36,945 nt of DNA from Castellaniella sp. Lineage in GTDB: Bacteria > Pseudomonadota > Gammaproteobacteria > Burkholderiales > Burkholderiaceae_B. Positions within the stretch are counted from its first letter, which is position 1, and each line of letters opens with the position of its first letter. The stretch covers positions 1 to 36,945 of the forward strand of contig DAHVSI010000238.1 of NCBI GenBank assembly GCA_027324645.1, read 5' to 3'. The position numbers and the translations under genes are program-made. Under the pieces are notes generated by a model. The model made no database searches, was not told the origin of the DNA, and worked only from the letters and a program-made list of their open reading frames with translations. Of the stretch, positions 2 through 33,275 are shown piece by piece.

Positions 2-553
2 GGTGTGGGCATGGTGCCTGAAGAACGACTGGGGCGTGGCGCTGTCCCCGATATGTCGCTGGCCGATAACTTGCTTCTGTCGCATCAGGACACTGCCACC
101 GTTCGTCATGGGTTTGTCCGAAGCAAAGCGGTACGTCGCCATACTGCAAACATCATTGAGCGGTTTTCCGTTGCGGCGCCCGGGCCGCAGGCGCTTGCGA
201 TGAGTCTGTCCGGTGGCAACCTGCAAAAATACATCATTGGTCGTGAAATCACGCGTAAGCCACGGGTTTTGCTGGTGGCTCAGCCCACCTGGGGCGTGGA
301 TGTGGGCGCAGCGGCGCGTATCCGCTCCGAGCTGATTGCATTGCGTGAGGCCGGTTGCGCCGTTTTGGTCATCTCCGAGGAACTGGACGAACTGTTCGAC
401 TTATCCGACCGTCTGGTTGTCATTGCTGGTGGCAGGCTGTCGCCTCCCATTGATGCCCGGCAGGCCACGCGCGACATGATTGGCCAATGGATGAGCGGCC
501 TGTGGCCTGGCTCATCACATACTGTTCAGGAGGCCGGTCATGCTGCGCCTTGA
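2..553 (+). CDS. ABC transporter ATP-binding protein, C-terminal part (5' end outside window); second NBD of a duplicated sugar/nucleoside-type ATPase
   Basis: The frame is open from the window edge. It has an LSGGNLQK signature-like motif, a VLLVAQPTWGVDV Walker-B-like segment and ISEELDELFDLSDRLVV. Its 3' end overlaps the next permease start (540) by 14 nt. Confidence 0.85.
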   Translation, partial: GVGMVPEERLGRGAVPDMSLADNLLLSHQDTATVRHGFVRSKAVRRHTANIIERFSVAAPGPQALAMSLSGGNLQKYIIGREITRKPRVLLVAQPTWGVDVGAAARIRSELIALREAGCAVLVISEELDELFDLSDRLVVIAGGRLSPPIDARQATRDMIGQWMSGLWPGSSHTVQEAGHAAP

Positions 554-1601
554 GGCCAGGGCAACGCCATCGGCATGGATGGCCTGGCTGTCGCCGGTAC
601 TGGCGGTGCTGTTGACCATGGTGTGCGGCACACTGCTGTTTATTGCGCTGGGTAAAGATCCCGTGGCGGGCCTCGGCGTCTTTTTTTACGAGCCGGTCAA
701 AGACTTGCGCGGCTGGTCCGAAGTGGGTATTAAGGTGGCGCCCCTGCTCATGGTTTCGGTGGGGCTGGCCATGTGTTTTCGGGCCAATGTGTTCAATATT
801 GGGGCCGAAGGCCAGCTTATTCTGGGCGGCATCACCGCCGGAGCCACAGTCCTGTATTTTGACGACGGTACTGGCGGCGGAGCATTCATGATTGCGCTGG
901 CTCTGGCTGCCGGGGCGCTGGGAGGCATGTGTTGGGCGGGGATTGTGGCATGGCTCAAAGATCGCTATCACGCCAACGAAATTCTTGTCTCGCTCATGCT
1001 GGTCTACGTGGCCGAGCTGTTGCTGAGTTGGCTGGTGCATGGGCCTATGCGGGATCCCGACAGCTTTGGTTTCCCCGAGTCCCGCCTGTTTTCTGACGGC
1101 TTTCTGCTGCCGGCAATCCTTACAGGTACACGCCTGCATATTGGATTACTTCTGGCGCTGCTGGCCAGTGTTTGCGGCTGGCTGTATTTTTCCCGAAGCT
1201 TCTCGGGTTACAAGTTGCGGGTCGGCGGCCTGGCGCCTCTGGCTGCCCGATACGCGGGCTTTTCGTCACGCCGTACCTTGTGGACCGTCATGCTGGCTTC
1301 GGGTGGCCTGGCAGGGATGGCCGGCGCTGCCGAGGCCATGGGGCCAATTGGACAGCTCACCCCATCGTTGTCCCCAGGCTATGGTTTCGCAGCCATTATT
1401 GTGGCGTTTGTGGGGCGGCTGCACCCCGTTGGCGTTATTTTCAGCAGTTTCATCATGGCGCTGTTCTATATAGGTGGTGAACTGTCCCAAAGCCGTCTGG
1501 GCATGCCCAGTGCTGTAACGGGCATTTTTCAGGGGATATTGCTGTTTGCCCTGCTGGCCTGTGATGTGCTCATCCACCACAAAGTCAGGTGGAGGGCCTG
1601 A
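540..1601 (+). CDS. ABC transporter permease (BMP/nucleoside-sugar type, YufP-like)
   Basis: 353-aa polytopic hydrophobic protein. AGGAGG lies 6 nt upstream of the ATG. It sits between the ATPase and a second permease. Confidence 0.85.
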   Translation: MLRLEARATPSAWMAWLSPVLAVLLTMVCGTLLFIALGKDPVAGLGVFFYEPVKDLRGWSEVGIKVAPLLMVSVGLAMCFRANVFNIGAEGQLILGGITAGATVLYFDDGTGGGAFMIALALAAGALGGMCWAGIVAWLKDRYHANEILVSLMLVYVAELLLSWLVHGPMRDPDSFGFPESRLFSDGFLLPAILTGTRLHIGLLLALLASVCGWLYFSRSFSGYKLRVGGLAPLAARYAGFSSRRTLWTVMLASGGLAGMAGAAEAMGPIGQLTPSLSPGYGFAAIIVAFVGRLHPVGVIFSSFIMALFYIGGELSQSRLGMPSAVTGIFQGILLFALLACDVLIHHKVRWRA

Positions 1602-1602
1602 T

Positions 1603-2520
1603 ATGGAATCTCTGGCCCCCTTAATCGCTTCTGCCATTGTTGCCGGCACGCCTCTCATGCTGGCGTCGCTGGGGTTGCTTATCAACGAGAAGTCTGGCGT
1701 GATCAACCTGGGTTCTGAAGGCATGATGCTGGTTGCAGCCATAGCCGGTTTTGCCATCACGGTGGATACGGGCAGCAGCATTCTGGGGTTTGCTGCCGGA
1801 GCGCTGGCCGGTGTGTTGCTGGCAGCGTTCTTTGCTTGGTTAACCGTCTGGCTGGGGGCCAATCAGGTTGCAACCGGCCTGGCATTGTCGCTGTTTGGGG
1901 TGGGTGCATCGGCCTACCTGGGCATTGACTATGTGGGCGAGACGCTCACAGGAACACGCCATGCCATTCCCTGGCTGCGTGATGTGCCTTTTTTGGGGCA
2001 GGCGTTGTTCCGCCATCATCCCATGGTGTACATCGCCTTGCTGCTATGCCTGGCCACCGCCTGGTTCCTGGGGCGCACACGGGCCGGGCTGGTTCTGCGT
2101 GCCGTGGGCGAGTCCCCCTCGTCAGCTCATTCGCTGGGATATGACGTCCGGCGCATCCGCTTGGCAGCATTGTTGTTTGGCGGGGGCTGCTGTGGGCTGG
2201 CTGGTGCCTTCCTGTCGCTGGTGTACACGCCCATGTGGGTCGAAGGCATGGTGGCGGGCCGTGGCTGGATTGCCCTGGCATTAACCACGTTTGCCACCTG
2301 GCGGCCGTTGCGCGTCATGCTGGGCGCTTTTCTGTTCGGCGGTATTACCATTCTGACTTATCATATGCAGGCACTGGGTGTGCCCATCGCCTCCCAGTGG
2401 CTGTCCATGTTGCCGTATCTGGCAACCATACTGGTACTGGTGCTTATTTCGCGTAATGCCAGCTGGATCAGGCTCAATATGCCGGCTTCGCTGGGTAAAC
2501 ACTTCACTCCCAATTCCTAA
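1603..2520 (+). CDS. ABC transporter permease (second subunit, YufQ-like)
   Basis: I chose the in-frame ATG at 1603 (MESLAPLIAS...), 2 nt after the upstream stop. The track start at 1546 would overlap the previous gene with non-membrane-like sequence. The protein is hydrophobic and multi-TM. Confidence 0.85.
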   Translation: MESLAPLIASAIVAGTPLMLASLGLLINEKSGVINLGSEGMMLVAAIAGFAITVDTGSSILGFAAGALAGVLLAAFFAWLTVWLGANQVATGLALSLFGVGASAYLGIDYVGETLTGTRHAIPWLRDVPFLGQALFRHHPMVYIALLLCLATAWFLGRTRAGLVLRAVGESPSSAHSLGYDVRRIRLAALLFGGGCCGLAGAFLSLVYTPMWVEGMVAGRGWIALALTTFATWRPLRVMLGAFLFGGITILTYHMQALGVPIASQWLSMLPYLATILVLVLISRNASWIRLNMPASLGKHFTPNS

Positions 2521-2530
2521 GGACCTCACT

Positions 2531-3616
2531 ATGACAAAAACCATGCATAAAGCGTTGCTGGCAATCGGAGCCGGCAGTCTGATGGCGTTGTCGGGCGTAA
2601 GCAGTGCCCAAGACGATCCGGTCAAAGTCGGCTTCGTTTACGTCAGCCCCATTGGTGATGCGGGTTGGACCTGGCAGCAGGATATCGGGCGCAAGGAAAT
2701 GGAAGAAGCGCTCGATGGCAAGGTGGTTAGCCAATACGTTGAAAACGTGCCCGAAGGTGCTGATGCAGAACGCGTGATTCGCGATCTGGCCGAACAGGGC
2801 AACGAGCTGATTTTTACGACGTCATTTGGCTACATGAACCCGACCATCAAGGTGGCCCGCCAGTTTCCCGACGTCAAGTTTGTGCACTCCACGGGTTACA
2901 AGACGGCGCCTAATGTGGCAACCACCAACTCCCGCTTCTATGAAGCCCGCTATCTGGGCGGCATTGTGGCCGGCAAAATGACTGAAAGCAACGTCATTGG
3001 CTATGTGGGTGCCTTCCCCATTCCCGAGGTGTTGCAGGGCATTAACGGCTTTACGCGGGGGCTGCGTAGCGTCAACCCGGATGCAGAAGTGCGCGTGATC
3101 TGGGCCAACACCTGGTACGACCCGGGTAAAGAGCGTGATGCTGCGTTGGCGCTGCTGTCCCAAGGCGCCGATGTGGTGACTCACCATACTGATTCCACAG
3201 CTGTTGTGCAGGCGGCGCAGGATGAAGGCAAGTATGTTGTAGCCTACCATTCCGACATGCAAAAATACGGACCTGATGCCCAGATTGCAGCTGTGACCCA
3301 CCACTGGGGGGATTACTTTACCGAACAGGCCAAGGCCGTCGTGGATGGCGACTGGGAAACCTCCAGTACCTGGGGTGGCCTTAAGTCGGGCATGGCGGCG
3401 CTGGACGGTATTGGCGACATGGTGCCGGACGATGTCCGTGAGCTTGTCGAGGAAAAGAAAGAGCAGATCGCTTCAGGCGAACTTGCCGTATTTGATGGCC
3501 CCATTGTGGACAACGAAGGCAAAACCCAGCACGAATCGGGCGTACTGGATGACGATGGCTTGAACAACATGAATTATTATGTGCGCGGCGTCGCCAGCAA
3601 GTATCCCGATCAGTAG
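2531..3616 (+). CDS. BMP-family ABC transporter substrate-binding protein (periplasmic, signal peptide, no lipobox)
   Basis: Start MTKTMHKALLAIGAGSLMALSGVSSAQ looks like a signal peptide, with AAGGA upstream. KVGFVYVSPIGDAGWT and GYVGAFPIPEV are typical of Med/BMP binding proteins. Confidence 0.85.
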   Translation: MTKTMHKALLAIGAGSLMALSGVSSAQDDPVKVGFVYVSPIGDAGWTWQQDIGRKEMEEALDGKVVSQYVENVPEGADAERVIRDLAEQGNELIFTTSFGYMNPTIKVARQFPDVKFVHSTGYKTAPNVATTNSRFYEARYLGGIVAGKMTESNVIGYVGAFPIPEVLQGINGFTRGLRSVNPDAEVRVIWANTWYDPGKERDAALALLSQGADVVTHHTDSTAVVQAAQDEGKYVVAYHSDMQKYGPDAQIAAVTHHWGDYFTEQAKAVVDGDWETSSTWGGLKSGMAALDGIGDMVPDDVRELVEEKKEQIASGELAVFDGPIVDNEGKTQHESGVLDDDGLNNMNYYVRGVASKYPDQ

Positions 3617-17538: not shown

Positions 17539-18368
17539 GCCAGGTTGTACTCACGGTCGAATCGGTTGCCAAGGCATTTGGCGGCAACCAGGTTCTCAAG
17601 GACGTCAGCTTCTCGGTCAACAAGGGCGAGATCGTTGGACTGCTGGGCCCCAACGGGTCGGGCAAAAGCACCTTGCTTAATACCATCACGGGTTTTGAAA
17701 CAACGGATGCAGGCAGCGTTCAGTTTGAGGGTCGGCGTATCAATAATCAGGTCACCCACCGCATTATCCAGCATGGTGTGGCCCGAACCTTCCAGCTACC
17801 AAGCATGCCCGAAAAAATGTCTGTCATGGAAGTCGCCATGGCAGCAAGCACCGCGCATCATGGCTTCTGGGATACATTCCTGGGCTCCCCAGGCGCGCGG
17901 CGTGCCGAACAGCAAGCCTACGAGCGCGCACTTGCCCTCACGGAACGCCTGTTGCTTACCGACGTGCGTGACTTGTCGGCGGCGGCCCTGTCTGGCGGCC
18001 AAAAAAAGCTGCTGGGCATTGTGTGCGCCCTGATGGCACAGCCGCGCATGCTGATGCTTGACGAGCCCACGGCCGGCGTACACCCCAACCTGCGTCAAGA
18101 CATTGTTCGTGTATTGCGTCAGCTTAACGAAGAAGGCATGACGATTGTGGTGGTAGAGCACGACATGCATTTTATTCGCGAACTGTGCCATCGCTGTGTT
18201 GTGCTCGACCGGGGCCATATTGTGGCTGACTGCCACCCCAACGAACTAGCCACGAACGAGCAGGTCCTAAATGCCTATCTGGGCACCACACGACCGCATG
18301 GTATTGATGTTGACACAGGCGGGGCAGAGGCTGCCGTGCAGGATAACAACGGACAGGCAATTTCATGA
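17535..18368 (+). CDS. ABC transporter ATP-binding protein (LivG family)
   Basis: Walker A GPNGSGKST, signature LSGGQKK, Walker B LMLDEPTAG. There are 4-nt overlaps with both neighbouring genes. Confidence 0.88.
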   Translation: MSQVVLTVESVAKAFGGNQVLKDVSFSVNKGEIVGLLGPNGSGKSTLLNTITGFETTDAGSVQFEGRRINNQVTHRIIQHGVARTFQLPSMPEKMSVMEVAMAASTAHHGFWDTFLGSPGARRAEQQAYERALALTERLLLTDVRDLSAAALSGGQKKLLGIVCALMAQPRMLMLDEPTAGVHPNLRQDIVRVLRQLNEEGMTIVVVEHDMHFIRELCHRCVVLDRGHIVADCHPNELATNEQVLNAYLGTTRPHGIDVDTGGAEAAVQDNNGQAIS

Positions 18369-19099
18369 CAACACAACACGTTGTTTCAGTTCAGGACATT
18401 TTGGCGGGCTACACCCCCGAGGTAGATATTCTGCGTGGCATGACACTCCATGCCGATCAGTCCGAAATCGTGACCCTGCTGGGTCCAAATGGCTGCGGCA
18501 AATCTACCTTGCTCAAAGCTATTGCGGGCTACCTGATTCCGCATACCGGCCAGGTCGTGCTCGATGGCAATGACGTCACCCGTATTCCTGTGCACGAAAA
18601 AATCCGCCATTGCAGTCTGGGTATCGTGCCCCAAACAGATAACGTCTTTACCGCCTTGTCGGTACGTGACAACCTTCTGGTTGGAGGGCACTATCTTGAC
18701 AACGCACAAAACGCCCGGCGTATCGATGCACTTTGCGAGCTGTATCCCATGCTCGCACGCAAGCTTCGGGCACCGGCTGCATCCCTGTCCGGGGGCGAAC
18801 GGCAAATCCTGGCGCTGGCCCGGGCACTCATGCCCGAACCCTCCATTTTGCTGCTCGACGAACCCTCGGCTGGCCTGTCCCCCAAAATGCTGCAAGAGGT
18901 ATTTGAGGCGATCGTCAACGTACGTGACCGCGAACAGGTTACCATCCTGATGGTCGAACAAAATGCCATGGAGGCATTACGCATTTCTGATCGTGCGTAC
19001 GTCCTGGCCATGGGAAAAATCGCATTGACCGGAAATGCGCACGACCTGATGCACGACGAGCAAATGCGTGAGCTATATCTGGGCGGACAGGCGGGCTGA
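18365..19099 (+). CDS. ABC transporter ATP-binding protein (LivF family)
   Basis: Walker A GPNGCGKST, signature LSGGERQ, Walker B LLLDEPSAG. Confidence 0.88.
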   Translation: MTTQHVVSVQDILAGYTPEVDILRGMTLHADQSEIVTLLGPNGCGKSTLLKAIAGYLIPHTGQVVLDGNDVTRIPVHEKIRHCSLGIVPQTDNVFTALSVRDNLLVGGHYLDNAQNARRIDALCELYPMLARKLRAPAASLSGGERQILALARALMPEPSILLLDEPSAGLSPKMLQEVFEAIVNVRDREQVTILMVEQNAMEALRISDRAYVLAMGKIALTGNAHDLMHDEQMRELYLGGQAG

Positions 19100-22000
19100 C
19101 GGCGGAACGGCGTGTTCCTGACGCTGCATGAACGCAGTCAGGATGGCTGCGGTATGTGAGCGATCCGCATGCTGCATCACCTGCTCCGGCGTGCCTTCTG
19201 CTACCAGGCGGCCACCGCCTGTTCCCCCTTCCGGCCCCAGGTCCAGCAGCCAGTCGGCCTCGGCAATGACATCCAGGTTGTGTTCTATCACGACCACCGT
19301 GTTGCCTGCGCTGGTCAGGCGGTGCAATACACCGATCAGCTTTTCAACGTCAGCCATCGACAGACCTACCGTGGGTTCATCCAGCACATAGAACGTGCGG
19401 GGCTGGCGAGAAGCGCGGCCGGTGCGCCGTACCCCTTCGTCCAGGCGCGCCTTGACGAGCTCTGTGACCAGCTTGACCCGCTGGGCTTCGCCTCCTGACA
19501 GGGTGGGTGACGGCTGCCCCAGCGTCAAATATCCCAGACCAACATCCTGCATCAGTTTGAGGGGACGCAGGATGTTCTGATGGGCTTGAAAGTAGGGAAT
19601 GGCTTCATCTACGTTCATGGCCAATACCTGGCCAATATGCTTGCCCTGCCAGGTCACGCCAAGCGTATCGGGGTTGAAGCGGTCGCCGTGGCATGCGTCG
19701 CAAGGCACCTTGATGTCGGGCAGGAAGTTCATTTCAACCGTTCGCATTCCCTGGCCTGCACAAACCGGGCAACGCCCGTCGCCCGTATTGAATGAGAACC
19801 GGGTAGCCGTCCAGCCCCGCAAGCGGGCTTCCTGCGTGCTGGCAAACAACCGCCGGATTGCATCCCAGAAACCGATATAGGTAGCGGGGCACGAGCGTGG
19901 CGTTTTGCCGATGGGCGTCTGGTCGACCTCCAGGACGCGGTCAATGTGTTCGCTGCCTTCGATTCGGCGACAGCCCTGAACGGCCTGTTCGTTGCTTGTA
20001 TGGTCGTTGCGTGTGTGGTGCAGCATGCCTGACAAGCTGGTCAGTAATACGTCACGGGCCAGTGTGGATTTACCCGAGCCCGATACACCGGTGACTACCG
20101 TGAGCCGCTGGGCAGGAATGCGCGCGTCCACATTGCGCAGATTATGCTTGTGCGCGTCACGCACGATGATAAAGGGATGGTCGCTGGCAATGGCACGCCG
20201 GGGTTGCATAGGGTGGTGCAGTGGGTCGCGCAGATACCGGCCCGTTAGGGAATGCTCACTGGCCATGATGTCGTCAACGGTTCCCTGTGCCACGACTTGC
20301 CCGCCACGGGTGCCTGCTCCCGGGCCCATGTCGATCACGTGTGCAGCGCGCCGGATGGTGTCCTCGTCGTGCTCCACCACGACCAGCGTGTTGCCATGGT
20401 TACCCAAGGCTTGCAGGGCGTTAAGCAAAATACGGTTATCTCGGGGGTGCAAGCCAATGGTGGGTTCATCCAGCACGTAGCATACGCCCTGCAGATTGCT
20501 GCCAAGCTGTGCAGCAAGACGAATACGCTGAGCTTCTCCGCCCGACAGCGTGGGTGCCGCACGGTCCAGTGAAAGATAACCCAGGCCGACTTCAAGCATA
20601 AAGGCAAGCCGGTTGCGGATCTCTGACAGGACATCGCGCGCAATTTCGGCTTCCCGTCCTTCAGTGACCAGTTCGGTGAAAAACTGGTTCGCATCTGTGA
20701 CGGGCATGGCTCCAAGCTGTGCTATGGATTTGCCGCGCCACTGTACGGCCAGTGACACCGGGTTCAGGCGTTGGCCCTGACAGTGACGGCACAAATCTGC
20801 CTCGTGGCTTTCATCAACCCAGGTCTGCTCTTCGCCGGTCTGTTCTGCATCAAACCCTTTAATATGGCGGCCCGTACCAAAACAGTGCGGGCACCAGCCG
20901 TGCTTGGAGTTATAAGAAAACAGGCGCGGATCGGGCTCGGGAAAGCTGGTCGCGCAACTGGGACAGGCGCGGTTGGTAGAAAAATTCAGCCATTGCACGT
21001 CAGTCCGTATACCGTGCGCACGACGTTCTGGCAGTGTTTGCGCAGGCGTGCCCTGGGTTAGCCCAGTCATCACGGCAAGGTTTCCGTGGCCATGTTCCAG
21101 GGCTTTTCTGATGGCTTGCCGAAGCCCCAGCTCGTCGGCTGGATCAACCAGCATATCTGCCACAGGCAAGTGTATGGTGTGTTCTTTATAGCGATCAAGA
21201 CGTGGCCAGGGCTCAACAGGGACGAATTGACCATCCACGTGCAAATGGGTGTATCCCCGGGCGGCAGCCCATTTTGCCAGGTCGGTGTAATAGCCCTTGC
21301 GCGCAACAACCAGGGGTGCCAGCAGGCCAATGTGTTCGCCCCGGTGCTGGGCCAACAGGCGGGCGGCAATCTGTTCGGGCGATTGTGGCTGAACAGGTAT
21401 CTGGCAGTCTGGACACATCTGCGTGCCCAGTCTGACATACAGCAGGCGCAGGAAATGGTGGATTTCAGTCATGGTGGCGACAGTCGATTTATGACCGCCG
21501 CGACTTGTACGCTGCTCGATGGCAACGGTGGGTGGAATGCCGTATATGGCGTCCACGTCAGGCTGCCCCGCCGGCTGAACAATGCTGCGGGCGTAGGCGT
21601 TGAGGGACTCAAGATAGCGGCGCTGCCCTTCATTGAACAGGATATCGAACGCCAGCGTGGATTTGCCAGATCCTGAAACCCCAGTGATGACGGTAAAGAT
21701 GTCATGGGGGATTCGGACGTTAACGCCCTGAAGGTTGTGCTCGCACGCGTTGACGACCTCGATATCGTGCAGTGTGACGGGCGTGGGCTGGTATGCTGAC
21801 GCGTCCTGCGGCAGCGGCTCGCTCAGGTGGTGCGGCGTGGCCGGAGCTCTGTCGTGGATGATATGCGCATCGTAATCACGCAGTGCCTGGCCGGTATGGG
21901 AGGCAGGGTGCGCCATGAGTGTTTCAGGCGTCCCGGTTGCGACGACCTCGCCGCCCGCCTCACCACCTTCCGGGCCCAGGTCAATCAGCCAGTCTGCGGC

Positions 22001-24787
22001 CCTGACCACGTCAAGATTGTGTTCAATAATGAGCAATGAATGGCCGGCACCCAGGAGTTTTCGAAAAGCACCCATCAGCCGGGCCACGTCGTCGGCATGC
22101 AAACCTGTGGTGGGCTCATCGAACAGCAACAGATTGCCCTTGCGGGCAACCCCGGCCTTTGCACCGCGCATTTTTGCTGCCGCTGCCAGATGGCCGGCCA
22201 GCTTAAGGCGTTGTGCTTCGCCGCCCGACAGTGTGGGTACGGGCTGACCCAGGCGGACGTACTCCAGCCCAACATCAATCAAAGGGGCCAGCCCACGCTG
22301 GACTTCGTGCAGCCCGCCAAAATAACTGGCGGCCTCGCTGACCGTCATATCCAGGACATCGGCAATTGAGGCGGTCGCACCTTGATGCTCAACCTGCACC
22401 TCAAGAATCTCGGGGCGGAAGCGCGACCCGTTGCAGTCTGGACAGCGTAGATACACGTCCGACAGAAACTGCATCTCGACATGCTCGAAACCGGTGCCGC
22501 CACAGGTGGGGCAGCGTCCGTCTCCTGTATTGAAGCTGAATGTGCCCGGCTTATAGCCCCGTTCCTTGGCCAGGGCGGTCTGGGCAAACAGCTTGCGGAT
22601 TGCATCGTAGGCGCCCACATAGCTGGCTGGATTGGAGCGGGCTGTTTTGCCAATGGGCGTCTGGTCAACCAGGACGACATCAGCCAGTTGCTCGGCCCCC
22701 AACAGATGCTGATAGTCGCCAGGCGCTTCGGTTGGGCGACCCTGCTGTTTAAGAAAAGCCGGATACAGGACATCCTGAACCAGGGTGGATTTGCCCGAGC
22801 CGGATACACCCGTAATGCACACAAGCCTGCCCAGGGGCAGGGCGATCGAGATATTTTTAAGGTTGTGTGCCCTGACGCCTTCAAGAATAAGGCGGGGGGT
22901 CTGATCGGTAACTGGCAGCGGGCGGGGTGCCTCGACGCTTAAGCGCCCGCTAAGATAGCGTCCGGTTAGCGTGTCGGCCTGCCGCAAAGCGTCCGGCTGG
23001 CCGTCAAAGATGATGTTGCCACCGCGCTCGCCGGGCCCGGGCCCGATGTCGACAATGCGGTCAGCAGCCACCATGATCTGCGGGTCGTGTTCCACGACCA
23101 CGAGTGTGTTGCCGTTATCACGCAGGCGATGCATGATGTCGACAATACGATGCATGTCACGTGGATGCAGGCCGATGGACGGTTCATCAAGCACAAACAG
23201 CGTATTGACCAGCGATGTGCCCAGAGCGGTCGTCAGGTTGATGCGTTGCACCTCGCCACCCGAGAGTGTGCGGCTTTGCCGCTCCAGGGACAGATACCCC
23301 AGCCCGACCTCGCACAGAAACGCCAGCCGTGAGCGAATCTCGGTTAATAGCAACCCCATGGCGTTATCCATATGGGTGCTGGGGCGCAATGTGTCAAAAA
23401 ACCGCTTGACCTGGTCAATGGGCAAGCGCATCAAATCCACAATATTAAGCCCGGGCAGCTGCTGCAGACGCTGTCGGCCAAAGTCTGCGTGCCAGGGCAT
23501 AAAACGCGTGTAGTCGCCGGCATCGTCCACCTGTTCGTCACCAAGGCGCCACAAGGTGGCATCGGCTTTAAGACGCGCCCCGTGACAGGTGGGGCAGGGG
23601 GTATAGCTGCGATATTTTGACAGGAGAACGCGGACGTGCATACGGTAAGCACGACTTTCAAGCCAGTCAAAAAAGCGGCGCATTCCGTACCAGTGTGTTT
23701 TCCAGTCACGCTTGCGACCGCCGAAGTCGGGGCTGCCTTCAATCACCCACCTTTGTTCGTCGGCGGCCAGGTCCTGCCACGGCACATCCAGCCGGATTCC
23801 TTCCTGGCGGGCGTATCGTTCCATGTCTTTCTGGTACGGCAGGTAGGTGGCTGTTTGCAATGGCCTGAGGGCGCCATCCTGTAGGCTGAGTGCCGGGTTG
23901 GGTATGACCAGGTCATAATCAATGCCCATGACCCGGCCAAACCCGCGACAATCCTCGCAGGCGCCCAGTGGCGAGTTAAATGAGAACGTGCTGGGCAGGG
24001 GTGTCGCGTACCGAATGTTGCAGTCGGCACAGTGCAAGTGCTCGCTGAAGCGCCAAACGGGATTTGAGTCAGGGTCGTCGGCATCAGCAACGTAGACGGC
24101 GATACTGCCGCGGCCCTGCTGGAACGCCGCATCCAGTGCTTCCATGACACGCTCGTGCTCGGCACGCCCCAGGCGGAAACGGTCCTGAATCACGTGAAGG
24201 ACGCGCTGGGCTTGTCCTTGGTCATCGTGCTGGGTCTCTTCGGTGTGGGTCCGCGTGTAACCTTGCTGATGTAAGAACCCTTCTACTTCTTCCTGAGTGA
24301 AGTTGGCAGGTACCCGGACCGGAAAAGTGACAACCAGGCGCGGGTCGGTATCGCCCACCCGCTCCCGGAGCTGCTGCATGACGGTCTGCGGGTTGTCGCG
24401 CACGACAGGTTGGGCGCAACCCCGGCAATACAGCCGGGCCATGCGGGCAAACAGCAGTTTCAGATGATCATTGAGCTCGGTCATGGTGCCGACTGTGCTG
24501 CGGGAATTGCGCACCGGGTTGACCTGGTCAATGGCTATGGCGGGCAAAATGCCCTCGATGCGGTCTACCTGGGGCTTGTCCATGCGATCCAGGAACTGCC
24601 GCGCATAGGGCGAAAATGTCTCTACGTAACGGCGCTGGCCTTCGGCATACAGCGTATCGAAGGCCAGAGAACTTTTGCCGGAGCCCGACACGCCCGTCAG
24701 GACAAGCAGTTCAGCAGTACGGATAGTGAGATTGAAGTTTTTAAGGTTGTTCTGGCGAGCGCCAATGATGCGGATGTCGGAAGTCAT
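19073..24787 (-). CDS. double-length UvrA-family protein: two complete UvrA units fused in one 1904-aa polypeptide (four ABC nucleotide-binding domains)
   Basis: Start MTSDIRIIGARQNNLKNFNL aligns with the canonical UvrA N-terminus. GVSGSGKS occurs four times (24671-24694, 22787-22810, 21659-21682, 20066-20089), and there are four LSGGE signature motifs. Zinc-module Cys pairs are at aa 121/124+253/256, 277/280+398/401 and 759/762+782/785, then 1125/1128+1275/1278, 1299/1302+1333/1336 and 1673/1676+1696/1699. No stop or frame break occurs between the units. Confidence 0.9.
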   Translation of the reverse strand: MTSDIRIIGARQNNLKNFNLTIRTAELLVLTGVSGSGKSSLAFDTLYAEGQRRYVETFSPYARQFLDRMDKPQVDRIEGILPAIAIDQVNPVRNSRSTVGTMTELNDHLKLLFARMARLYCRGCAQPVVRDNPQTVMQQLRERVGDTDPRLVVTFPVRVPANFTQEEVEGFLHQQGYTRTHTEETQHDDQGQAQRVLHVIQDRFRLGRAEHERVMEALDAAFQQGRGSIAVYVADADDPDSNPVWRFSEHLHCADCNIRYATPLPSTFSFNSPLGACEDCRGFGRVMGIDYDLVIPNPALSLQDGALRPLQTATYLPYQKDMERYARQEGIRLDVPWQDLAADEQRWVIEGSPDFGGRKRDWKTHWYGMRRFFDWLESRAYRMHVRVLLSKYRSYTPCPTCHGARLKADATLWRLGDEQVDDAGDYTRFMPWHADFGRQRLQQLPGLNIVDLMRLPIDQVKRFFDTLRPSTHMDNAMGLLLTEIRSRLAFLCEVGLGYLSLERQSRTLSGGEVQRINLTTALGTSLVNTLFVLDEPSIGLHPRDMHRIVDIMHRLRDNGNTLVVVEHDPQIMVAADRIVDIGPGPGERGGNIIFDGQPDALRQADTLTGRYLSGRLSVEAPRPLPVTDQTPRLILEGVRAHNLKNISIALPLGRLVCITGVSGSGKSTLVQDVLYPAFLKQQGRPTEAPGDYQHLLGAEQLADVVLVDQTPIGKTARSNPASYVGAYDAIRKLFAQTALAKERGYKPGTFSFNTGDGRCPTCGGTGFEHVEMQFLSDVYLRCPDCNGSRFRPEILEVQVEHQGATASIADVLDMTVSEAASYFGGLHEVQRGLAPLIDVGLEYVRLGQPVPTLSGGEAQRLKLAGHLAAAAKMRGAKAGVARKGNLLLFDEPTTGLHADDVARLMGAFRKLLGAGHSLLIIEHNLDVVRAADWLIDLGPEGGEAGGEVVATGTPETLMAHPASHTGQALRDYDAHIIHDRAPATPHHLSEPLPQDASAYQPTPVTLHDIEVVNACEHNLQGVNVRIPHDIFTVITGVSGSGKSTLAFDILFNEGQRRYLESLNAYARSIVQPAGQPDVDAIYGIPPTVAIEQRTSRGGHKSTVATMTEIHHFLRLLYVRLGTQMCPDCQIPVQPQSPEQIAARLLAQHRGEHIGLLAPLVVARKGYYTDLAKWAAARGYTHLHVDGQFVPVEPWPRLDRYKEHTIHLPVADMLVDPADELGLRQAIRKALEHGHGNLAVMTGLTQGTPAQTLPERRAHGIRTDVQWLNFSTNRACPSCATSFPEPDPRLFSYNSKHGWCPHCFGTGRHIKGFDAEQTGEEQTWVDESHEADLCRHCQGQRLNPVSLAVQWRGKSIAQLGAMPVTDANQFFTELVTEGREAEIARDVLSEIRNRLAFMLEVGLGYLSLDRAAPTLSGGEAQRIRLAAQLGSNLQGVCYVLDEPTIGLHPRDNRILLNALQALGNHGNTLVVVEHDEDTIRRAAHVIDMGPGAGTRGGQVVAQGTVDDIMASEHSLTGRYLRDPLHHPMQPRRAIASDHPFIIVRDAHKHNLRNVDARIPAQRLTVVTGVSGSGKSTLARDVLLTSLSGMLHHTRNDHTSNEQAVQGCRRIEGSEHIDRVLEVDQTPIGKTPRSCPATYIGFWDAIRRLFASTQEARLRGWTATRFSFNTGDGRCPVCAGQGMRTVEMNFLPDIKVPCDACHGDRFNPDTLGVTWQGKHIGQVLAMNVDEAIPYFQAHQNILRPLKLMQDVGLGYLTLGQPSPTLSGGEAQRVKLVTELVKARLDEGVRRTGRASRQPRTFYVLDEPTVGLSMADVEKLIGVLHRLTSAGNTVVVIEHNLDVIAEADWLLDLGPEGGTGGGRLVAEGTPEQVMQHADRSHTAAILTAFMQRQEHAVPPSARLSAQI

Positions 24788-24803
24788 GGTTCTATGATAA
24801 ACG

Positions 24804-24830
24804 TTGAGGCGGCGCGTCGAGTGGTAGAAT
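24804..24830 (+). promoter_or_regulatory. putative sigma70-type promoter with extended -10 for the 42-codon minigene
   Basis: TGgTAGAAT (TG at 24822-24823, hexamer at 24825-24830) with TTGAGG at 24804-24809. The spacer is only 15 nt, so the -35 assignment is weak. Confidence 0.3.
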
Positions 24831-24869
24831 GGCCCAGGATCCGGTAAATTATCCTCAAGAGGTTTTTTT

Positions 24870-24998
24870 ATGAAAGAAATCAATCGCACGCGACGCAACT
24901 CGATCGAGCGTCGCAGCCTAAGCAAGTCGTTCAAACGCTTGTTTGTCAATGCGCCACGTGGCACGTTCAAAATGCTTGAAAAGGTCAAGCGCGCCTAA
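24870..24998 (+). CDS. unannotated small ORF encoding a 42-aa strongly basic peptide (MKEINRTRRNSIERRSLSKSFKRLFVNAPRGTFKMLEKVKRA)
   Basis: It is below the 60-aa cut-off of the ORF track. AAGAGG (24857-24862) lies 7 nt upstream of the ATG. It has a TAA stop and an intrinsic terminator 13 nt downstream. G/C is enriched at third codon positions (28 of 42). The peptide has 14 K/R and 3 D/E. Confidence 0.45.
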   Translation: MKEINRTRRNSIERRSLSKSFKRLFVNAPRGTFKMLEKVKRA

Positions 24999-25011: not shown

Positions 25012-25043
25012 GCCGGCGGAATAGGTTCTGCCGGCATTTTTTT
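25012..25043 (+). terminator. rho-independent terminator (plus-strand orientation), placed between two convergent genes
   Basis: GCCGGCGG (25012-25019) pairs with CTGCCGGC (25028-25035). That is 8 bp including one G-U pair, with an 8-nt loop, followed by A and seven T (25037-25043). Confidence 0.6.
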
Positions 25044-25047
25044 GACA

Positions 25048-25470
25048 TTAGTCGTCTGGTTCAGGGGGATCCGTCAGGTCAAAAGGCAGGACTTCGTGCA
25101 GGTTGCTGGTCCATGCAATCTCGTCGCCTTCCTGGTCAACCTTAATATACCGGACGCCGGGCAAGTCCGATAACTGCAGGGCCCATAAAAACTCACAATC
25201 GTAGATGTCGCCGTCACGCAGTGACAGGCCACCACGGTTGCCAACCAAACGGGCCTGCGGGCCGCCTACCTGGACAACAACGACATCATCGAGGGTTTGG
25301 CCTGGCAGTAACGGGACGGCAAATAAAGCCCACTCAAAGCCGGTTTCAGCAGCACCAATGATTTCACCCAGTACTGGTTTGCCCATCCATGCGCTCATGG
25401 CATCTGCAGTACGGCCCAGCAGATCAATTTCTGCTGAATCAAAGGTCAGGCCGGGCGTGGCGTCGGACAT
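25048..25470 (-). CDS. hypothetical protein, 140 aa, strongly acidic (25 D/E, 7 K/R); family not recognised
   Basis: Clean ORF with an ATG start. It is divergent from ettA and convergent with the small basic ORF. I recognise no motifs. Confidence 0.6.
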   Translation of the reverse strand: MSDATPGLTFDSAEIDLLGRTADAMSAWMGKPVLGEIIGAAETGFEWALFAVPLLPGQTLDDVVVVQVGGPQARLVGNRGGLSLRDGDIYDCEFLWALQLSDLPGVRYIKVDQEGDEIAWTSNLHEVLPFDLTDPPEPDD

Positions 25471-25544: not shown

Positions 25545-27218
25545 ATGAGCCAATACGTTTATACGATGAATCGCGTCGGCAAAATTGTGCCGCCCAAGCG
25601 CCAGATTTTGCGCGACATTTCGCTATCGTTTTTTCCTGGAGCCAAAATTGGTGTGCTGGGTCTGAATGGGGCGGGCAAATCCACGCTGCTTCGGATCATG
25701 GCCGGAGAGGATCGCGACATCGAGGGCGAAGCCCGTGCCATGCCGGGGCTCAATGTGGGTTATTTGCCGCAAGAACCACAGCTCAATCCCGAGCATACGG
25801 TGCGGGAATCTGTCGAAGAAGGTTTGGGTGAAATCTTTTCGGCGCGGGCGCGCCTGAACGAGGTATACGCCGCCTACGCTGAGCCCGATGCGGATTTTGA
25901 CGCGCTGGCTGCTGAACAGGCCGAGCTGGAGGCCATTATCGAAGCGGCTGCCTCAAGCGGTAGCGACGATATCGAAACACAGATGGAAATTGCAGCGGAT
26001 GCGCTTCGGCTGCCGCCCTGGGATGCTGTTGTAGGGCGTCTGTCCGGTGGTGAAAAGCGCCGGGTTGCACTGTGTCGGCTGCTGCTGTCACGGCCCGATA
26101 TGCTGTTGCTTGACGAGCCCACCAACCACCTGGACGCCGAGAGCGTCGAGTGGCTGGAGCAGTTCTTACGCAAGTTCTCGGGTACTGTTGTCGCGGTCAC
26201 GCACGACCGATACTTTCTTGATAACGCGGCAGACTGGATTCTGGAACTTGACCGTGGCCACGGTATTCCCTGGAAAGGTAACTACACGTCATGGCTGGAA
26301 CAGAAACAGGATCGCCTGCAGCAGGAAGAGGCTGCCGAATCCGCACGCCAGCGGACCATCAAGAAAGAGCTTGAATGGGTACGGCAAAATCCCAAGGGGC
26401 GGCAAGCCAAAGCCAAGGCAAGGCTGGCGCGCTTTGAGGAGCTGTCATCGCACGAATACCAGCGCCGCAACGAAACACAGGAAATTTTCATTCCTGTTGC
26501 TGAACGTCTGGGCACGGAAGTCATTGAATTCAAGAACGTGAGCAAGGGCTATGGTGATCGCCTGCTCATGGACGATGTCAGCTTCAAGGTGCCGGCAGGG
26601 GCAATCGTAGGCATTATCGGGCCTAACGGTGCGGGTAAGTCCACGTTGTTTCGCATGATCTCCGGCCAGGAAAATCCGGATGCCGGCACGATCGACATCG
26701 GTCAAACCGTCCAGTTGGCGTATGTTGACCAGTCGCGTGATGCCTTGCCTGATGACAAGACGGTGTTCGAGGCGGTTGCCGATGGCTCCGACGTGATCAA
26801 TGTGGGCCGGTTTGAAATGCCCGCCCGGGCGTATGTAGGCCGCTTCAACTTCAGGGGCTCCGACCAGAACAAGTTTGTAGGGGATTTGTCCGGGGGCGAG
26901 CGCGGCCGTCTGCATTTGGCCAAAACACTGGTCTCCGGCGGTAATGTGCTGCTTTTGGACGAGCCTTCTAACGACCTGGACGTTGAGACCCTGCGTGCCC
27001 TTGAGGATGCGTTGCTTGAATTTGCCGGTTGTGTGATGGTGATCAGTCATGATCGCTGGTTCCTCGACCGCATCGCAACGCATATCCTGGCTTTCGAAGG
27101 GGATTCGCGTGTGGTATTTTTTGATGGCAACTACCAGGAATACGAAGCTGACCGACGGGCCAGACTGGGTGAAGAAGCCAGCCGCCCCCGCCGCCTTCGT
27201 TACAAACCCTTGCGCTAA
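25545..27218 (+). CDS. ettA: energy-dependent translational throttle protein EttA (ABC-F family)
   Basis: N-terminus [47 protein letters not shown]. It has two NBDs ([18 protein letters not shown]), two LSGGE signatures and an inter-domain linker. Confidence 0.92.
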
Positions 27219-31268: not shown

Positions 31269-33275
31269 ATGACAACAACGCTGTCCGCTCTGCCAGATCA
31301 CGACGCGGCCGCCTCATCCGGTGCATCCCGAATATGGCAGCATCCTGCCCTGCGGTCCCTGACTGCCGAACAGCGGCAGGCCGTAGCTACGTGGGCGTCT
31401 CGTCAAGCTTTGGTGGCTGCCGCCGGGTCTGGGAAAACCGCAACCATGGTGGGCAAGGTGGTGTACAGCATACTGACCGGGCGCTATCGTCCCGAAGAGG
31501 TGCTGGTTCTGGCATTTAACCGTAGTGCGGCCCATGAGCTGCAGCAACGACTGGCCAGCCACATGGCGTATGACCATGCCGGTTCGGCAGGCGCCGCCAG
31601 AGCAACGGCCGATATTCGGGTGGCCACGATGCATGCGCTGGGGCTGTCCGTGGTCCGGCAGCAGCATCGTCGGGCGCTCAGGGTGGTAGACGATGTTCTG
31701 GACGAGGTGCTTGCGTATCTGCTGCAGACGGATGTGGCGTTCGCTGACAGGTGGCTGTTTTATCGTACGTTTGCTCATGTGCTCGTCAAACATCCTGATG
31801 AGTGTGCTTCGGCGGCGGCATGGCGCCGGTTTGTCAAAACTCATGGTCAGCGCAGCGGGCGCCGGGTCGGATTTTTGACGTTACGCAATGAGTGGGTGCA
31901 AACGCAGTTTGAACAGGCCGTTGCAAACTGGCTGTATTGCCATGGCTTAGCGTACCGGTACCGGCCAGAGGGTATAGGATCGTCGCTGGCCCGCGTCTGT
32001 CAGGGGCAGCTTGCGCGTCCTTTGTCAGGCCGCATGGTGTTTATTTTGGCCAGATCCGGCTGCCGCCTGTATTGTCTGTCCTCACCACGACGGGCGCCGG
32101 CTCGTGCAGGTGGCCACAGGGTTCTGCACGTCAGTTTGCAGGATTACCGTAGCGGTGCCTTGCCGGTCCGGCTGCGCACCCTGCTTTGCCCCGACCGGCG
32201 CAGCCCGCTGACGGGACGCATGCGTGTGGTGCTAGGCGCCCTTGGCTACCGTTTGGGGCGTAGTCAGCGAGCCACGCTATGTCGCGCCGTCAGTCTGGCA
32301 CGTCTGCGTGATCTGGCGGCAGCAGACCTGGCCAAGGCTGCGACGGGCAGTCATGCCCCGCAGCACGCAGGCTGGTACGGGCCCATGCTGCAGCAGCTTG
32401 TACGCAGTTATCGCCATATCATGCAGGAGCGTGGCGTGACTGACTATGAAGGGATGCTGGATCTGGCGGCGGAGCAGTTTGTGCAGGGCACATCGGATCA
32501 TGCCTATCAACTGATCCTGGTAGACGAATTCCAGGATACGTCGCCGGCAGCGGTACGACTGTTGCAGGCAATGCTGGCCAGCCGGCCCAAGTGTGATTTA
32601 TTTGTGGTGGGCGACGACTGGCAGTCCATTTATCATTTTGCGGGCGCTCAGTCCGATGTGCTGCAAACCTTTCAGGCACAGTTTGGGAAGGCCGTGGTAT
32701 CGCAGTTGACGTGCACATTTCGTTTCGATCAGCACCTGGCCAATATGGCTACCCGGTTTGTGCAGGCCAATCCGGCGCAGCTTGCCAAGCCGGTACGCGC
32801 CAATCGCCAGGGTAGTGCTTCCAGCGTGATCCACCATGCGTATGATTCAGTTGAACACATGTGGGAATGGTGTGAACGCTGTTTGCATACGCTGGCAGAG
32901 CGCATCGACGTCCCAATGGCAACCGTCATGATCCTGGGACGTTATCAGCATCAGTCGCCCGCACGGCTGCCGGCATGGAGGCACGCCTTTTCCCAGCTCA
33001 GCATTGATTATCATACGGTACATGCCGCCAAGGGTATGGAAGCGGACGCAGTGATCCTGATAGGCTTGGAAACGGGGCGCTATGGCTTTCCCTGCACACA
33101 GGATGACGATCCGCTGGTCTGCCTGGTACAGCGCAGCAACGAGACATTTTTGCATGCAACCGAGCGACGGCTTTTTTATGTAGCTCTGACCCGCGCCAGG
33201 TACCAGCTCTATCTGCTTGGCAGCGCTCAGCACCCATCTCCCTTTGTGCAGGAACTGGGTGTTACACCGTCCTGA
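31269..33275 (+). CDS. UvrD/Rep-type superfamily 1 helicase, helicase IV (HelD)-like core without the long N-terminal domain
   Basis: Walker A AGSGKT (31425-31439). Also present are DEFQDTS (motif II), VGDDWQSIY (III), VHAAKGMEADAVIL (V) and RRLFYVALTRAR (VI). The helicase IV-like segment FEQAVANWLYCHGLAYRY precedes an atypical central region. Confidence 0.8.
   Translation: MTTTLSALPDHDAAASSGASRIWQHPALRSLTAEQRQAVATWASRQALVAAAGSGKTATMVGKVVYSILTGRYRPEEVLVLAFNRSAAHELQQRLASHMAYDHAGSAGAARATADIRVATMHALGLSVVRQQHRRALRVVDDVLDEVLAYLLQTDVAFADRWLFYRTFAHVLVKHPDECASAAAWRRFVKTHGQRSGRRVGFLTLRNEWVQTQFEQAVANWLYCHGLAYRYRPEGIGSSLARVCQGQLARPLSGRMVFILARSGCRLYCLSSPRRAPARAGGHRVLHVSLQDYRSGALPVRLRTLLCPDRRSPLTGRMRVVLGALGYRLGRSQRATLCRAVSLARLRDLAAADLAKAATGSHAPQHAGWYGPMLQQLVRSYRHIMQERGVTDYEGMLDLAAEQFVQGTSDHAYQLILVDEFQDTSPAAVRLLQAMLASRPKCDLFVVGDDWQSIYHFAGAQSDVLQTFQAQFGKAVVSQLTCTFRFDQHLANMATRFVQANPAQLAKPVRANRQGSASSVIHHAYDSVEHMWEWCERCLHTLAERIDVPMATVMILGRYQHQSPARLPAWRHAFSQLSIDYHTVHAAKGMEADAVILIGLETGRYGFPCTQDDDPLVCLVQRSNETFLHATERRLFYVALTRARYQLYLLGSAQHPSPFVQELGVTPS

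Follow-up and report, generated by a model that had tools for sequence, protein, structure and literature searches.

A double-length UvrA of Castellaniella sp. with its insertion domain and canonical UvrB-binding domain on different halves

Canonical UvrA is a symmetric homodimer of ~940-amino acid (aa) chains that loads UvrB, and a gene that encodes two UvrA units in one chain raises the question of whether these units could act as the two protomers of such a dimer. A gene of this kind lies in a stretch of 36,945 nucleotides from Castellaniella sp. (contig DAHVSI010000238.1 of assembly GCA_027324645.1), the whole of which we refer to as the window. As judged from sequence, its product has one insertion domain (ID), in unit 1, and one canonical UvrB-binding domain (UBD), in unit 2, so that the two are found on different halves of the chain. 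We propose that the product is a covalent, asymmetric UvrA pseudo-dimer in damage sensing, probably a second UvrA beside a canonical one, and we put the probability of this reading at roughly 0.55.

The open reading frame (ORF) list and translation show that the minus strand has the only open frame across positions 19073-24787. A plus-strand reading of this interval was ruled out, its translation being riddled with stops. The minus-strand ORF spans 19073 to 24988 (a TTG codon), and an internal ATG at 24787 begins MTSDIRIIGARQNNL / MTSDIRIIGARQNNLKNF, the UvrA N-terminus that is common to all homologues. From this ATG the complete coding sequence (19073..24787, minus strand) gives a product of 1904 aa and a stop codon at 19073-19075, and homologues of 1880-1950 aa align over 99-100%. 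The full-length protein scores 1976 bits against NF001503 (cut-off 1147) and 1945 bits against TIGR00630 (cut-off 729.8). Taken singly, units 1 and 2 reach 965 and 1016 bits with NF001503, slightly under its cut-off, and 954 and 998 bits with TIGR00630, both above its cut-off. Since the halves have TIGR00630 scores of 954-998 bits, together with E-values of ~1e-228 against solved UvrA structures, chance similarity is no issue.

A motif scan found the Walker A octapeptide GVSGSGKS four times on the minus strand: at aa 32 in nucleotide-binding domain I (NBD-I) of unit 1 (24671..24694), at aa 660 in NBD-II of unit 1 (22787..22810), at aa 1036 in NBD-I of unit 2 (21659..21682), and at aa 1567 in NBD-II of unit 2 (20066..20089). 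The same scan placed LSGGE signatures at aa 508, 853, 1414, and 1763, and found four Walker B motifs (hhhDEP) together with six Cys4 modules built from 12 CxxC motifs. Walker A, Walker B, signature, and H-loop are all found at the four nucleotide-binding sites, with two ABC domains per unit.

Unit 1 (aa 1-970; 21878..24787, minus strand) is a class-I-like UvrA that comprises NBD-I, a UBD-like domain, an ID, NBD-II, and three Cys4 modules. It aligns end to end with E. coli UvrA at ~40% identity and matches UvrA structures in the PDB with a phmmer E-value of 1.5e-228, and its AlphaFold2 (AF2) model, with a mean pLDDT of 76.7, matches 2r6f/3uwx at TMq 0.69-0.72 over ~1000 columns. The ID (aa 281-397; 23597..23947, minus strand) lies between the Zn2 cysteines C277/C280 and C398/C401; these CxxC pairs (C277...C401) are separated by 117 aa, the span aligns with the E. 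coli ID, and the Pfam family UvrA_DNA-bind (PF17755) is matched at 48.4 bits against a cut-off of 23.2. The UBD-like domain of unit 1 (aa 125-252; 24032..24415, minus strand) is degenerate in sequence, with a score of 17.7 bits (E=3.3e-3) against Pfam UvrA_inter (PF17760), below the gathering score of 23.3, and with 54% mean identity among 121 family members it is the least conserved folded region of the family. The AF2 model nevertheless gives a confident alpha/beta domain here (pLDDT ~84-93), and on this prediction the fold of the unit 1 UBD survives while its sequence signature has diverged. Zn3, the C-terminal zinc finger of unit 1 (C759/C762/C782/C785; 22433..22513, minus strand), aligns to C740-C766 of E. 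coli UvrA. An insert of ~35 aa after the second Zn2 pair (aa 412-447; 23447-23554, minus strand) is specific to the family and is missing in E. coli UvrA and in unit 2; within it, the family shows almost no variation at R428, F429, P431, and W436.

Unit 2 (aa 1008-1904; 19076..21766, minus strand) is a UvrA with a canonical UBD and without an ID. Its best phmmer E-value against the PDB is 1.3e-232, and the top match of its AF2 model (mean pLDDT 77.4) is 3uwx_A, from a UvrA-UvrB complex, at TM ~0.7. The models of the separate units both match the class I structures 2R6F, 3UWX, and 3ZQJ at TM ~0.7. The UBD of unit 2 (aa 1129-1274; 20966..21403, minus strand) matches UvrA_inter at 85-101 bits over profile positions 1-105 of 109, its motifs LLAPxxxxRKG and GYxxxxVDG align with E. 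coli UvrA, and it is modelled at pLDDT 84-93. In the Zn2 module (C1299/C1302 ... C1333/C1336; 20780..20893, minus strand) a 30-aa loop replaces the ID: the alignment with E. coli UvrA has a clean ID deletion, and the Pfam scan gave no UvrA_DNA-bind match in unit 2. Zn3 of unit 2 (C1673/C1676/C1696/C1699; 19691..19771, minus strand) again aligns to E. coli UvrA, and the Zn1 CxxC pairs are present in both units, where they enclose a domain of 128-146 aa.

The units are joined by a Pro/His-rich linker (aa 971-1007; 21767..21877, minus strand) with the sequence DYDAHIIHDRAPATPHHLSEPLPQDASAYQPTPVTLH, which includes 6 Pro and 5 His. Among the 121 family members, mean identity in the linker is 23%, and the conserved SHTG and NAxEHNL motifs lie 35 to 93 aa apart. 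With this hypervariability in sequence and length, the linker behaves as a variable tether. Protein identity between the units is ~40%, and at the DNA level they share three short patches only, of 30-97 nt and 73-87% identity. Both GC content and GC content at third codon positions (GC3) equal those of the adjacent genes. The duplication is old and lies in a native gene, and it is neither a repeat nor an assembly artefact.

These results agree in large part with an initial annotation made from the DNA letters and their ORFs, which had described one uninterrupted frame of 1904 codons at 19073-24787 encoding two full UvrA units with four ATPase sites and six zinc modules. The coordinates and the linker are consistent with ours, with the correction that the gene is on the minus strand, and the motif scan bears out the single frame, the sites, and the modules. 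It also recovered the exact codon strings behind the statement that the four Walker A octapeptides use different synonymous codons. The duplication had been called old and no artefact, which is supported by the ~40% protein identity, the three DNA patches, and the presence of the architecture in more than 120 clusters, including complete genomes. That there are two units stands, but they are not both full, as unit 2 is without an ID and the UBD of unit 1 is degenerate in sequence. The suggestion that the halves could differentiate is borne out by Pfam matches, alignment, and relatives, in which unit 1 keeps the ID and unit 2 the canonical UBD. The search of each half against profile models that the annotation had proposed was carried out, and each half passes TIGR00630 and is closer to class I than to class II structures.

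Both halves are also conserved in a manner that suggests continued function. In the 121 family members, the ATPase cores have consensus frequencies of 87-95%. A deeper alignment of a 20-member subfamily, with identity down to 35%, shows that the Gly, Lys, and Ser of Walker A and the core Gly-Glu of all four LSGGE signatures are invariant, as is the Glu-Pro of Walker B at the four sites, with the preceding Asp invariant at three of them. The H-loop His is invariant at three sites, and H567, in NBD-I of unit 1, is nearly so; the Zn2 and Zn3 cysteines of the two units are invariant as well. Purifying selection is thus strong in either unit; both halves are functional, and all four ATP sites are probably active. 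The Zn1 cysteines are under weaker constraint, and in one species, Paracandidimonas soli (P0047), unit 1 has lost all four, leaving 10 CxxC motifs versus 12, consistent with a relaxation of constraint on its UBD-like region.

How widespread is this architecture? In a collection of 5.8 billion proteins, more than 120 clusters with members of 1880-1950 aa match the window protein at 69-77% identity across 99-100% of its length. Their sources, within Alcaligenaceae, are Bordetella, Achromobacter, Pusillimonas, Alcaligenes, Castellaniella, Candidimonas, and their relatives, and every one of them bears the name excinuclease ABC subunit UvrA. A tblastn search against plasmids found full-length orthologues, 61% identical, on the Ralstonia solanacearum megaplasmid of ~2 Mb (134 Ralstonia records, one of which has the gene annotated as uvrA_2) and on a 550-kb replicon of Burkholderia multivorans (protein WP_045592911.1). 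The genome paper of Cupriavidus metallidurans CH34 places uvrA1 on CHR1 and a second gene, uvrA2, which may be the tandem form, on CHR2. An exhaustive HMMER search with a query that spans the junction (aa 640-1340) covered 1.84 billion cluster representatives (50% identity); of the 150 best, ~130 were 1500-2340 aa long, with an alignment that continued through the junction. Among the matches listed in a scan of species genomes, full-length tandems were found in Bordetella, Comamonadaceae, Thauera, Verrucomicrobiota (Chthoniobacterales, Prosthecobacter, and Opitutales), and Planctomycetaceae, and the subtype in which a full unit precedes an ID-less unit is found in Burkholderiales and also in Verrucomicrobiota and Planctomycetota. 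NCBIfam already holds PRK00635, an equivalog model for double UvrA with 1809 positions. Tandem UvrA is thus very common, diverse, and routinely annotated. A view of the architecture as unusual does not hold up against the clusters, the top representatives, and the double-length NCBIfam model. Double UvrA is reportedly the "class III" of Goosen and Moolenaar in 2008, and SEED lists a role named "Excinuclease ABC subunit A, dimeric form".

Motif spacing and Pfam matches on examples reveal several layouts. Both units can be full class I UvrA, as in P0124 with two UBD and two ID matches, or a full unit can be followed by an ID-less one as in the window protein (P0121-123, P0131, P0133, P0138, P0163, and P0181). 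P0143 has the spacing of this second type, yet Pfam recognises both of its UBDs. The reverse order, ID-less and then full, is seen in P0146 and P0168, tandems of class-II-like units without a UBD are seen in P0225 and others of ~1600 aa, and mixed layouts occur too. P0124 and P0127, at 2334 and 2343 aa, are ~400 aa longer than the others; both of their units are strongly canonical, and a second part of ~1310-1330 aa implies an extra C-terminal region.

To place the window type among these, 104 representatives were split in two and each unit was compared with window units 1 and 2 and with E. coli UvrA. Unit A is closest to window unit 1 and unit B to window unit 2 in 49 of them; in most of these 49, each unit is closer to its window counterpart than to E. 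coli UvrA and self-similarity is low. By this unit-by-unit correspondence with low self-similarity, the window type is an old, monophyletic fusion. In other tandems the two units are similar both to E. coli UvrA and to one another, a sign of younger, independent duplications. A stand-alone UvrA of 914 aa (P0213), at 281-3025 of a 3.1-kb metagenome contig, is 60% identical to unit 2 and is without a normal ID. We considered whether it could be half of a split gene and rejected this, since the ORF that precedes it on the contig is unrelated; the ID-less unit type thus occurs in unfused form as well.

In the pseudo-dimer that we propose, units 1 and 2 would pack like the protomers of the canonical UvrA2 dimer, which would make the protein covalently joined and obligately asymmetric. 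It would bind DNA and sense distortions using ATP. With one canonical UBD, it would recruit one UvrB and not two, mainly via unit 2, and the resulting A-A'.B1 sensor would feed normal UvrB/UvrC excision. It would probably do so as a second, accessory UvrA next to a canonical UvrA of ~950 aa, damage-inducible in some relatives. We favour this link to nucleotide excision repair (NER) over a class II role because the canonical UBD is retained and because both halves are nearer to class I than to D. radiodurans UvrA2 (DrUvrA2) and Ecm16. The fusion of an ID-less unit to an ID-bearing one in either order fits a heterotypic pair. Status as a second copy is favoured by the uvrA_2 and uvrA2 annotations and by the 40-50% identity of the units to E. 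coli UvrA, which is a paralogue-level value, and is thus probable on this sequence evidence. An A2B1 complex is a documented state of canonical UvrA-UvrB (PMC11985968; PDB 9ga3), and whether the stoichiometry is A2B1 or A2B2, and how the strand is chosen, is still under debate (PMC11985968).

Part of this proposal concerns regulation, for which we looked for LexA-type boxes, defined as CTGT-N8-ACAG or one mismatch away. Such boxes are found at the orthologues of B. bronchiseptica (CTGGGTATTTATACAG, at -157; locus L002 9847), a Bordetella metagenome-assembled genome (MAG; CTGTTTATATATACAG, at -31 from the start of the match), and B. multivorans (CTGTATGAATATACAG, at -134), and none is present upstream of the Ralstonia, Thauera, and Caenimonas orthologues. 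A decayed look-alike is found in the window at 24822-24837, with the reverse complement CTGGGCCATTCTACCA. Since some orthologues have a box and the window gene does not, SOS control of tandem uvrA seems to depend on lineage.

Several points weigh against the proposed asymmetric pseudo-dimer. Intramolecular pairing is something that we infer, the structures having been predicted for the separate units only. The UBD-like domain of unit 1 is still folded in its model and could bind UvrB, which would give an A-A'.B2 complex. The probable second-UvrA status is drawn from relatives outside Alcaligenaceae, among which Rmet_4549 of Cupriavidus is counted by its annotation. The 82-bp intergenic region upstream of the window gene lacks a LexA box (no CTG-N10-CAG), and no NER gene adjoins tandem uvrA in the window. 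No experimental work on a tandem UvrA turned up when open-access texts were searched for tandem, duplicated, or class III UvrA, in keeping with the initial annotation, which knew of no functional or structural study.

The evidence can be read in other ways. The protein could be an accessory paralogue that works without UvrB, like DrrC, Ecm16, and UvrA2, using ATP to remove intercalators or other non-covalent ligands or serving another DNA transaction. Orthologues that are second uvrA genes on secondary replicons would suit this role, as would the 40-50% identity of each unit to E. coli UvrA, the existence of tandems of class-II-like units such as P0225, which has no UvrA_inter match, and the fact that Ecm16 acts independently of UvrB and UvrC. 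The defining trait of class II, however, is that the UBD and first zinc module have been lost, whereas the UBD of unit 2 scores highly and is conserved in the family; class I structures outscore class II structures for both halves, and no biosynthetic or efflux genes are found near tandem uvrA. We therefore think such a role unlikely, and the analogy with DrrC and Ecm16 drawn at the outset is a weak one, as those class II proteins lack both features that the window protein keeps. Another reading makes this the sole housekeeping UvrA of the organism, performing all NER, as does the double-length UvrA of Chlamydia, which is not known to have a second UvrA beside this housekeeping one. The Prokaryotic Genome Annotation Pipeline (PGAP) names the protein simply UvrA, NCBIfam treats the double-length PRK00635 as a UvrA equivalog, the UBD, ID, Zn3, and four ATPase sites are all kept, and the Bordetella and Burkholderia orthologues have SOS boxes, as canonical uvrA genes do. 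Ralstonia and Cupriavidus nevertheless carry a second uvrA besides the chromosomal one, the 40-50% identity to E. coli UvrA is lower than expected of an orthologue and more like that of a paralogue, and the gene lies outside the uvrA-ssb arrangement of E. coli, so we also regard a sole UvrA as improbable.

Two further possibilities concern how the units would be arranged. In a stricter form of the pseudo-dimer, the sensor would be hard-wired: unit 1, with its ID, would clamp and probe the DNA and unit 2, with its UBD, would deliver one UvrB in a fixed orientation. In a variant of this, the UBD-like domain of unit 1 may have been retargeted to a partner with a module like UvrB domain 2, such as Mfd. 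We offer this stricter form as a speculation that is more doubtful than either of the two readings above. Alternatively, the chain may not fold back on itself at all, and two chains would associate through like units, 1 with 1' and 2 with 2', or by exchange of units, to form a four-unit assembly. Each unit keeps the conserved core that forms the canonical dimer, which such pairing would use, but the linkers are highly variable and as short as 35 aa, which suggests a simple tether, and fusions of ID-less and ID-bearing units in either order fit a heterotypic pair within one chain; we consider inter-chain pairing quite unlikely. That the ORF is an artefact of assembly, or stems from two adjacent genes joined through a sequencing error in the linker, has negligible probability given a single ORF in more than 120 clusters and many independent assemblies, complete genomes among them, as well as in 134 records of the Ralstonia megaplasmid and in distant phyla, and given that there is almost no DNA identity between the units.

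Downstream of the gene lies a branched-chain amino-acid ABC transporter, of which a convergent livF-like ABC ATPase gene (18365-19099, plus strand) overlaps the 3' end of tandem uvrA by its last 27 nt (19073-19099). Upstream there are a divergent 42-aa ORF, a 140-aa ORF, an ABC-F ATPase, an isochorismatase-family gene, and a TRAP transporter. The 42-aa ORF (24870-24998, plus strand) encodes the strongly basic peptide MKEINRTRRNSIERRSLSKSFKRLFVNAPRGTFKMLEKVKRA, is separated from tandem uvrA by the 82-bp gap, and is followed by a terminator-like hairpin at 25012-25035. An ORF of 42 aa with 66% identity occupies the same upstream position at B. bronchiseptica tandem uvrA (locus L002 9407-9535), and a partial copy is found at the Bordetella MAG locus (L007); the peptide has no Pfam match, and the Ralstonia and Burkholderia loci yielded no homologue of it. 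The acidic 140-aa ORF (25048-25470, minus strand), also without a Pfam match, adjoins the ABC-F type ATPase gene (25545-27218, plus strand), whose product has two ABC domains and ABC_tran_Xtn. A UvrD/Rep-family helicase of 668 aa is encoded 6.5 kb from tandem uvrA (31269-33275, plus strand); its 271-position N-terminal profile is spread over residues 31-472, which implies a large insertion. Gene context differs in Bordetella, Ralstonia, and Burkholderia, with only the 42-aa ORF in common (with Bordetella). An operon or synteny clue to function was considered and rejected, since the neighbours (transporters, ABC-F, isochorismatase) are not conserved among relatives. The window contains no tRNA or Rfam family, and promoter and terminator scans of it were at background level.

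As a gene, the window uvrA is ordinary, being 74-77% identical to proteins annotated as UvrA in hundreds of genomes, and the interest lies in the built-in asymmetry of its family, which is large, old, known and annotated, and apparently unstudied. Its members would be natural covalent UvrA heterodimers in which UvrB-binding and insertion domains are split unequally between the halves. Because one protomer of a symmetric UvrA homodimer is hard to mutate alone, a natural asymmetric pseudo-dimer would be a handy tool for questions of stoichiometry and strand choice. The hard-wired form of the sensor, if true, would be a natural solution to the problem of how a symmetric UvrA2B2 complex singles out one UvrB and one strand. 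The same proteins bear on why many Burkholderiales retain a second, SOS-linked UvrA.

Among known systems, class I UvrA (E. coli; 2R6F, 3UWX, 3PIH, 3ZQJ, 9GA2-5, and 9GXK) gives the closest sequence and fold matches for both window units. Each unit shares with it the NBD-I/NBD-II core, the signature domains, Zn2 and Zn3, and a DNA-contacting GKT(P/A)RS motif. The window protein differs in fusing two units that have one ID and one sequence-canonical UBD between them, in the extra insert after Zn2 of unit 1, and in an identity to E. coli UvrA of only 40-50%. The Burkholderiales tandems (the ~1900-aa proteins of Bordetella, Achromobacter, and Pusillimonas, Ralstonia uvrA_2, and B. multivorans WP_045592911.1) are true orthologues, 61-77% identical along 99% of the length, in which the units come in the same order and unit 2 likewise has no ID. 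They differ from the window protein in linker sequence and length, in a Lys-rich loop in the UBD-like domain of unit 1, and in genomic context, and several of their genes have an SOS box whereas the window gene has none.

The double UvrA of PRK00635, which we take to be the Chlamydia type, is likewise a single chain of two UvrA units named excinuclease ABC subunit A. The window protein is not a member of this family, scoring 1121 bits against a cut-off of 3054, and because it misses this cut-off the two types are probably independent fusions. Class II UvrA (D. radiodurans UvrA2, 2VF7; DrrC; Ecm16, 7SH1) resembles the window protein as a paralogue beside a canonical UvrA, which the window protein probably is as well, and in having an ABC ATPase core with an ID. 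In contrast to class II, which has lost the UBD and first zinc module, with Ecm16 working without UvrB and UvrC, the window protein keeps both. Both of its halves score clearly lower against 2VF7 and 7SH1 than against class I structures, and by these comparisons the window protein, a UvrA in all tests of sequence and fold, is class-I-like and not class II. An analogy, and only that, is offered by the single-stranded DNA-binding protein (SSB) of Deinococcus-Thermus, which is unrelated to UvrA in fold and function. There too a duplication has fused subunits of a homo-oligomeric DNA-binding protein, giving two OB folds per chain and a dimer in place of a tetramer, and has left the halves free to diverge.

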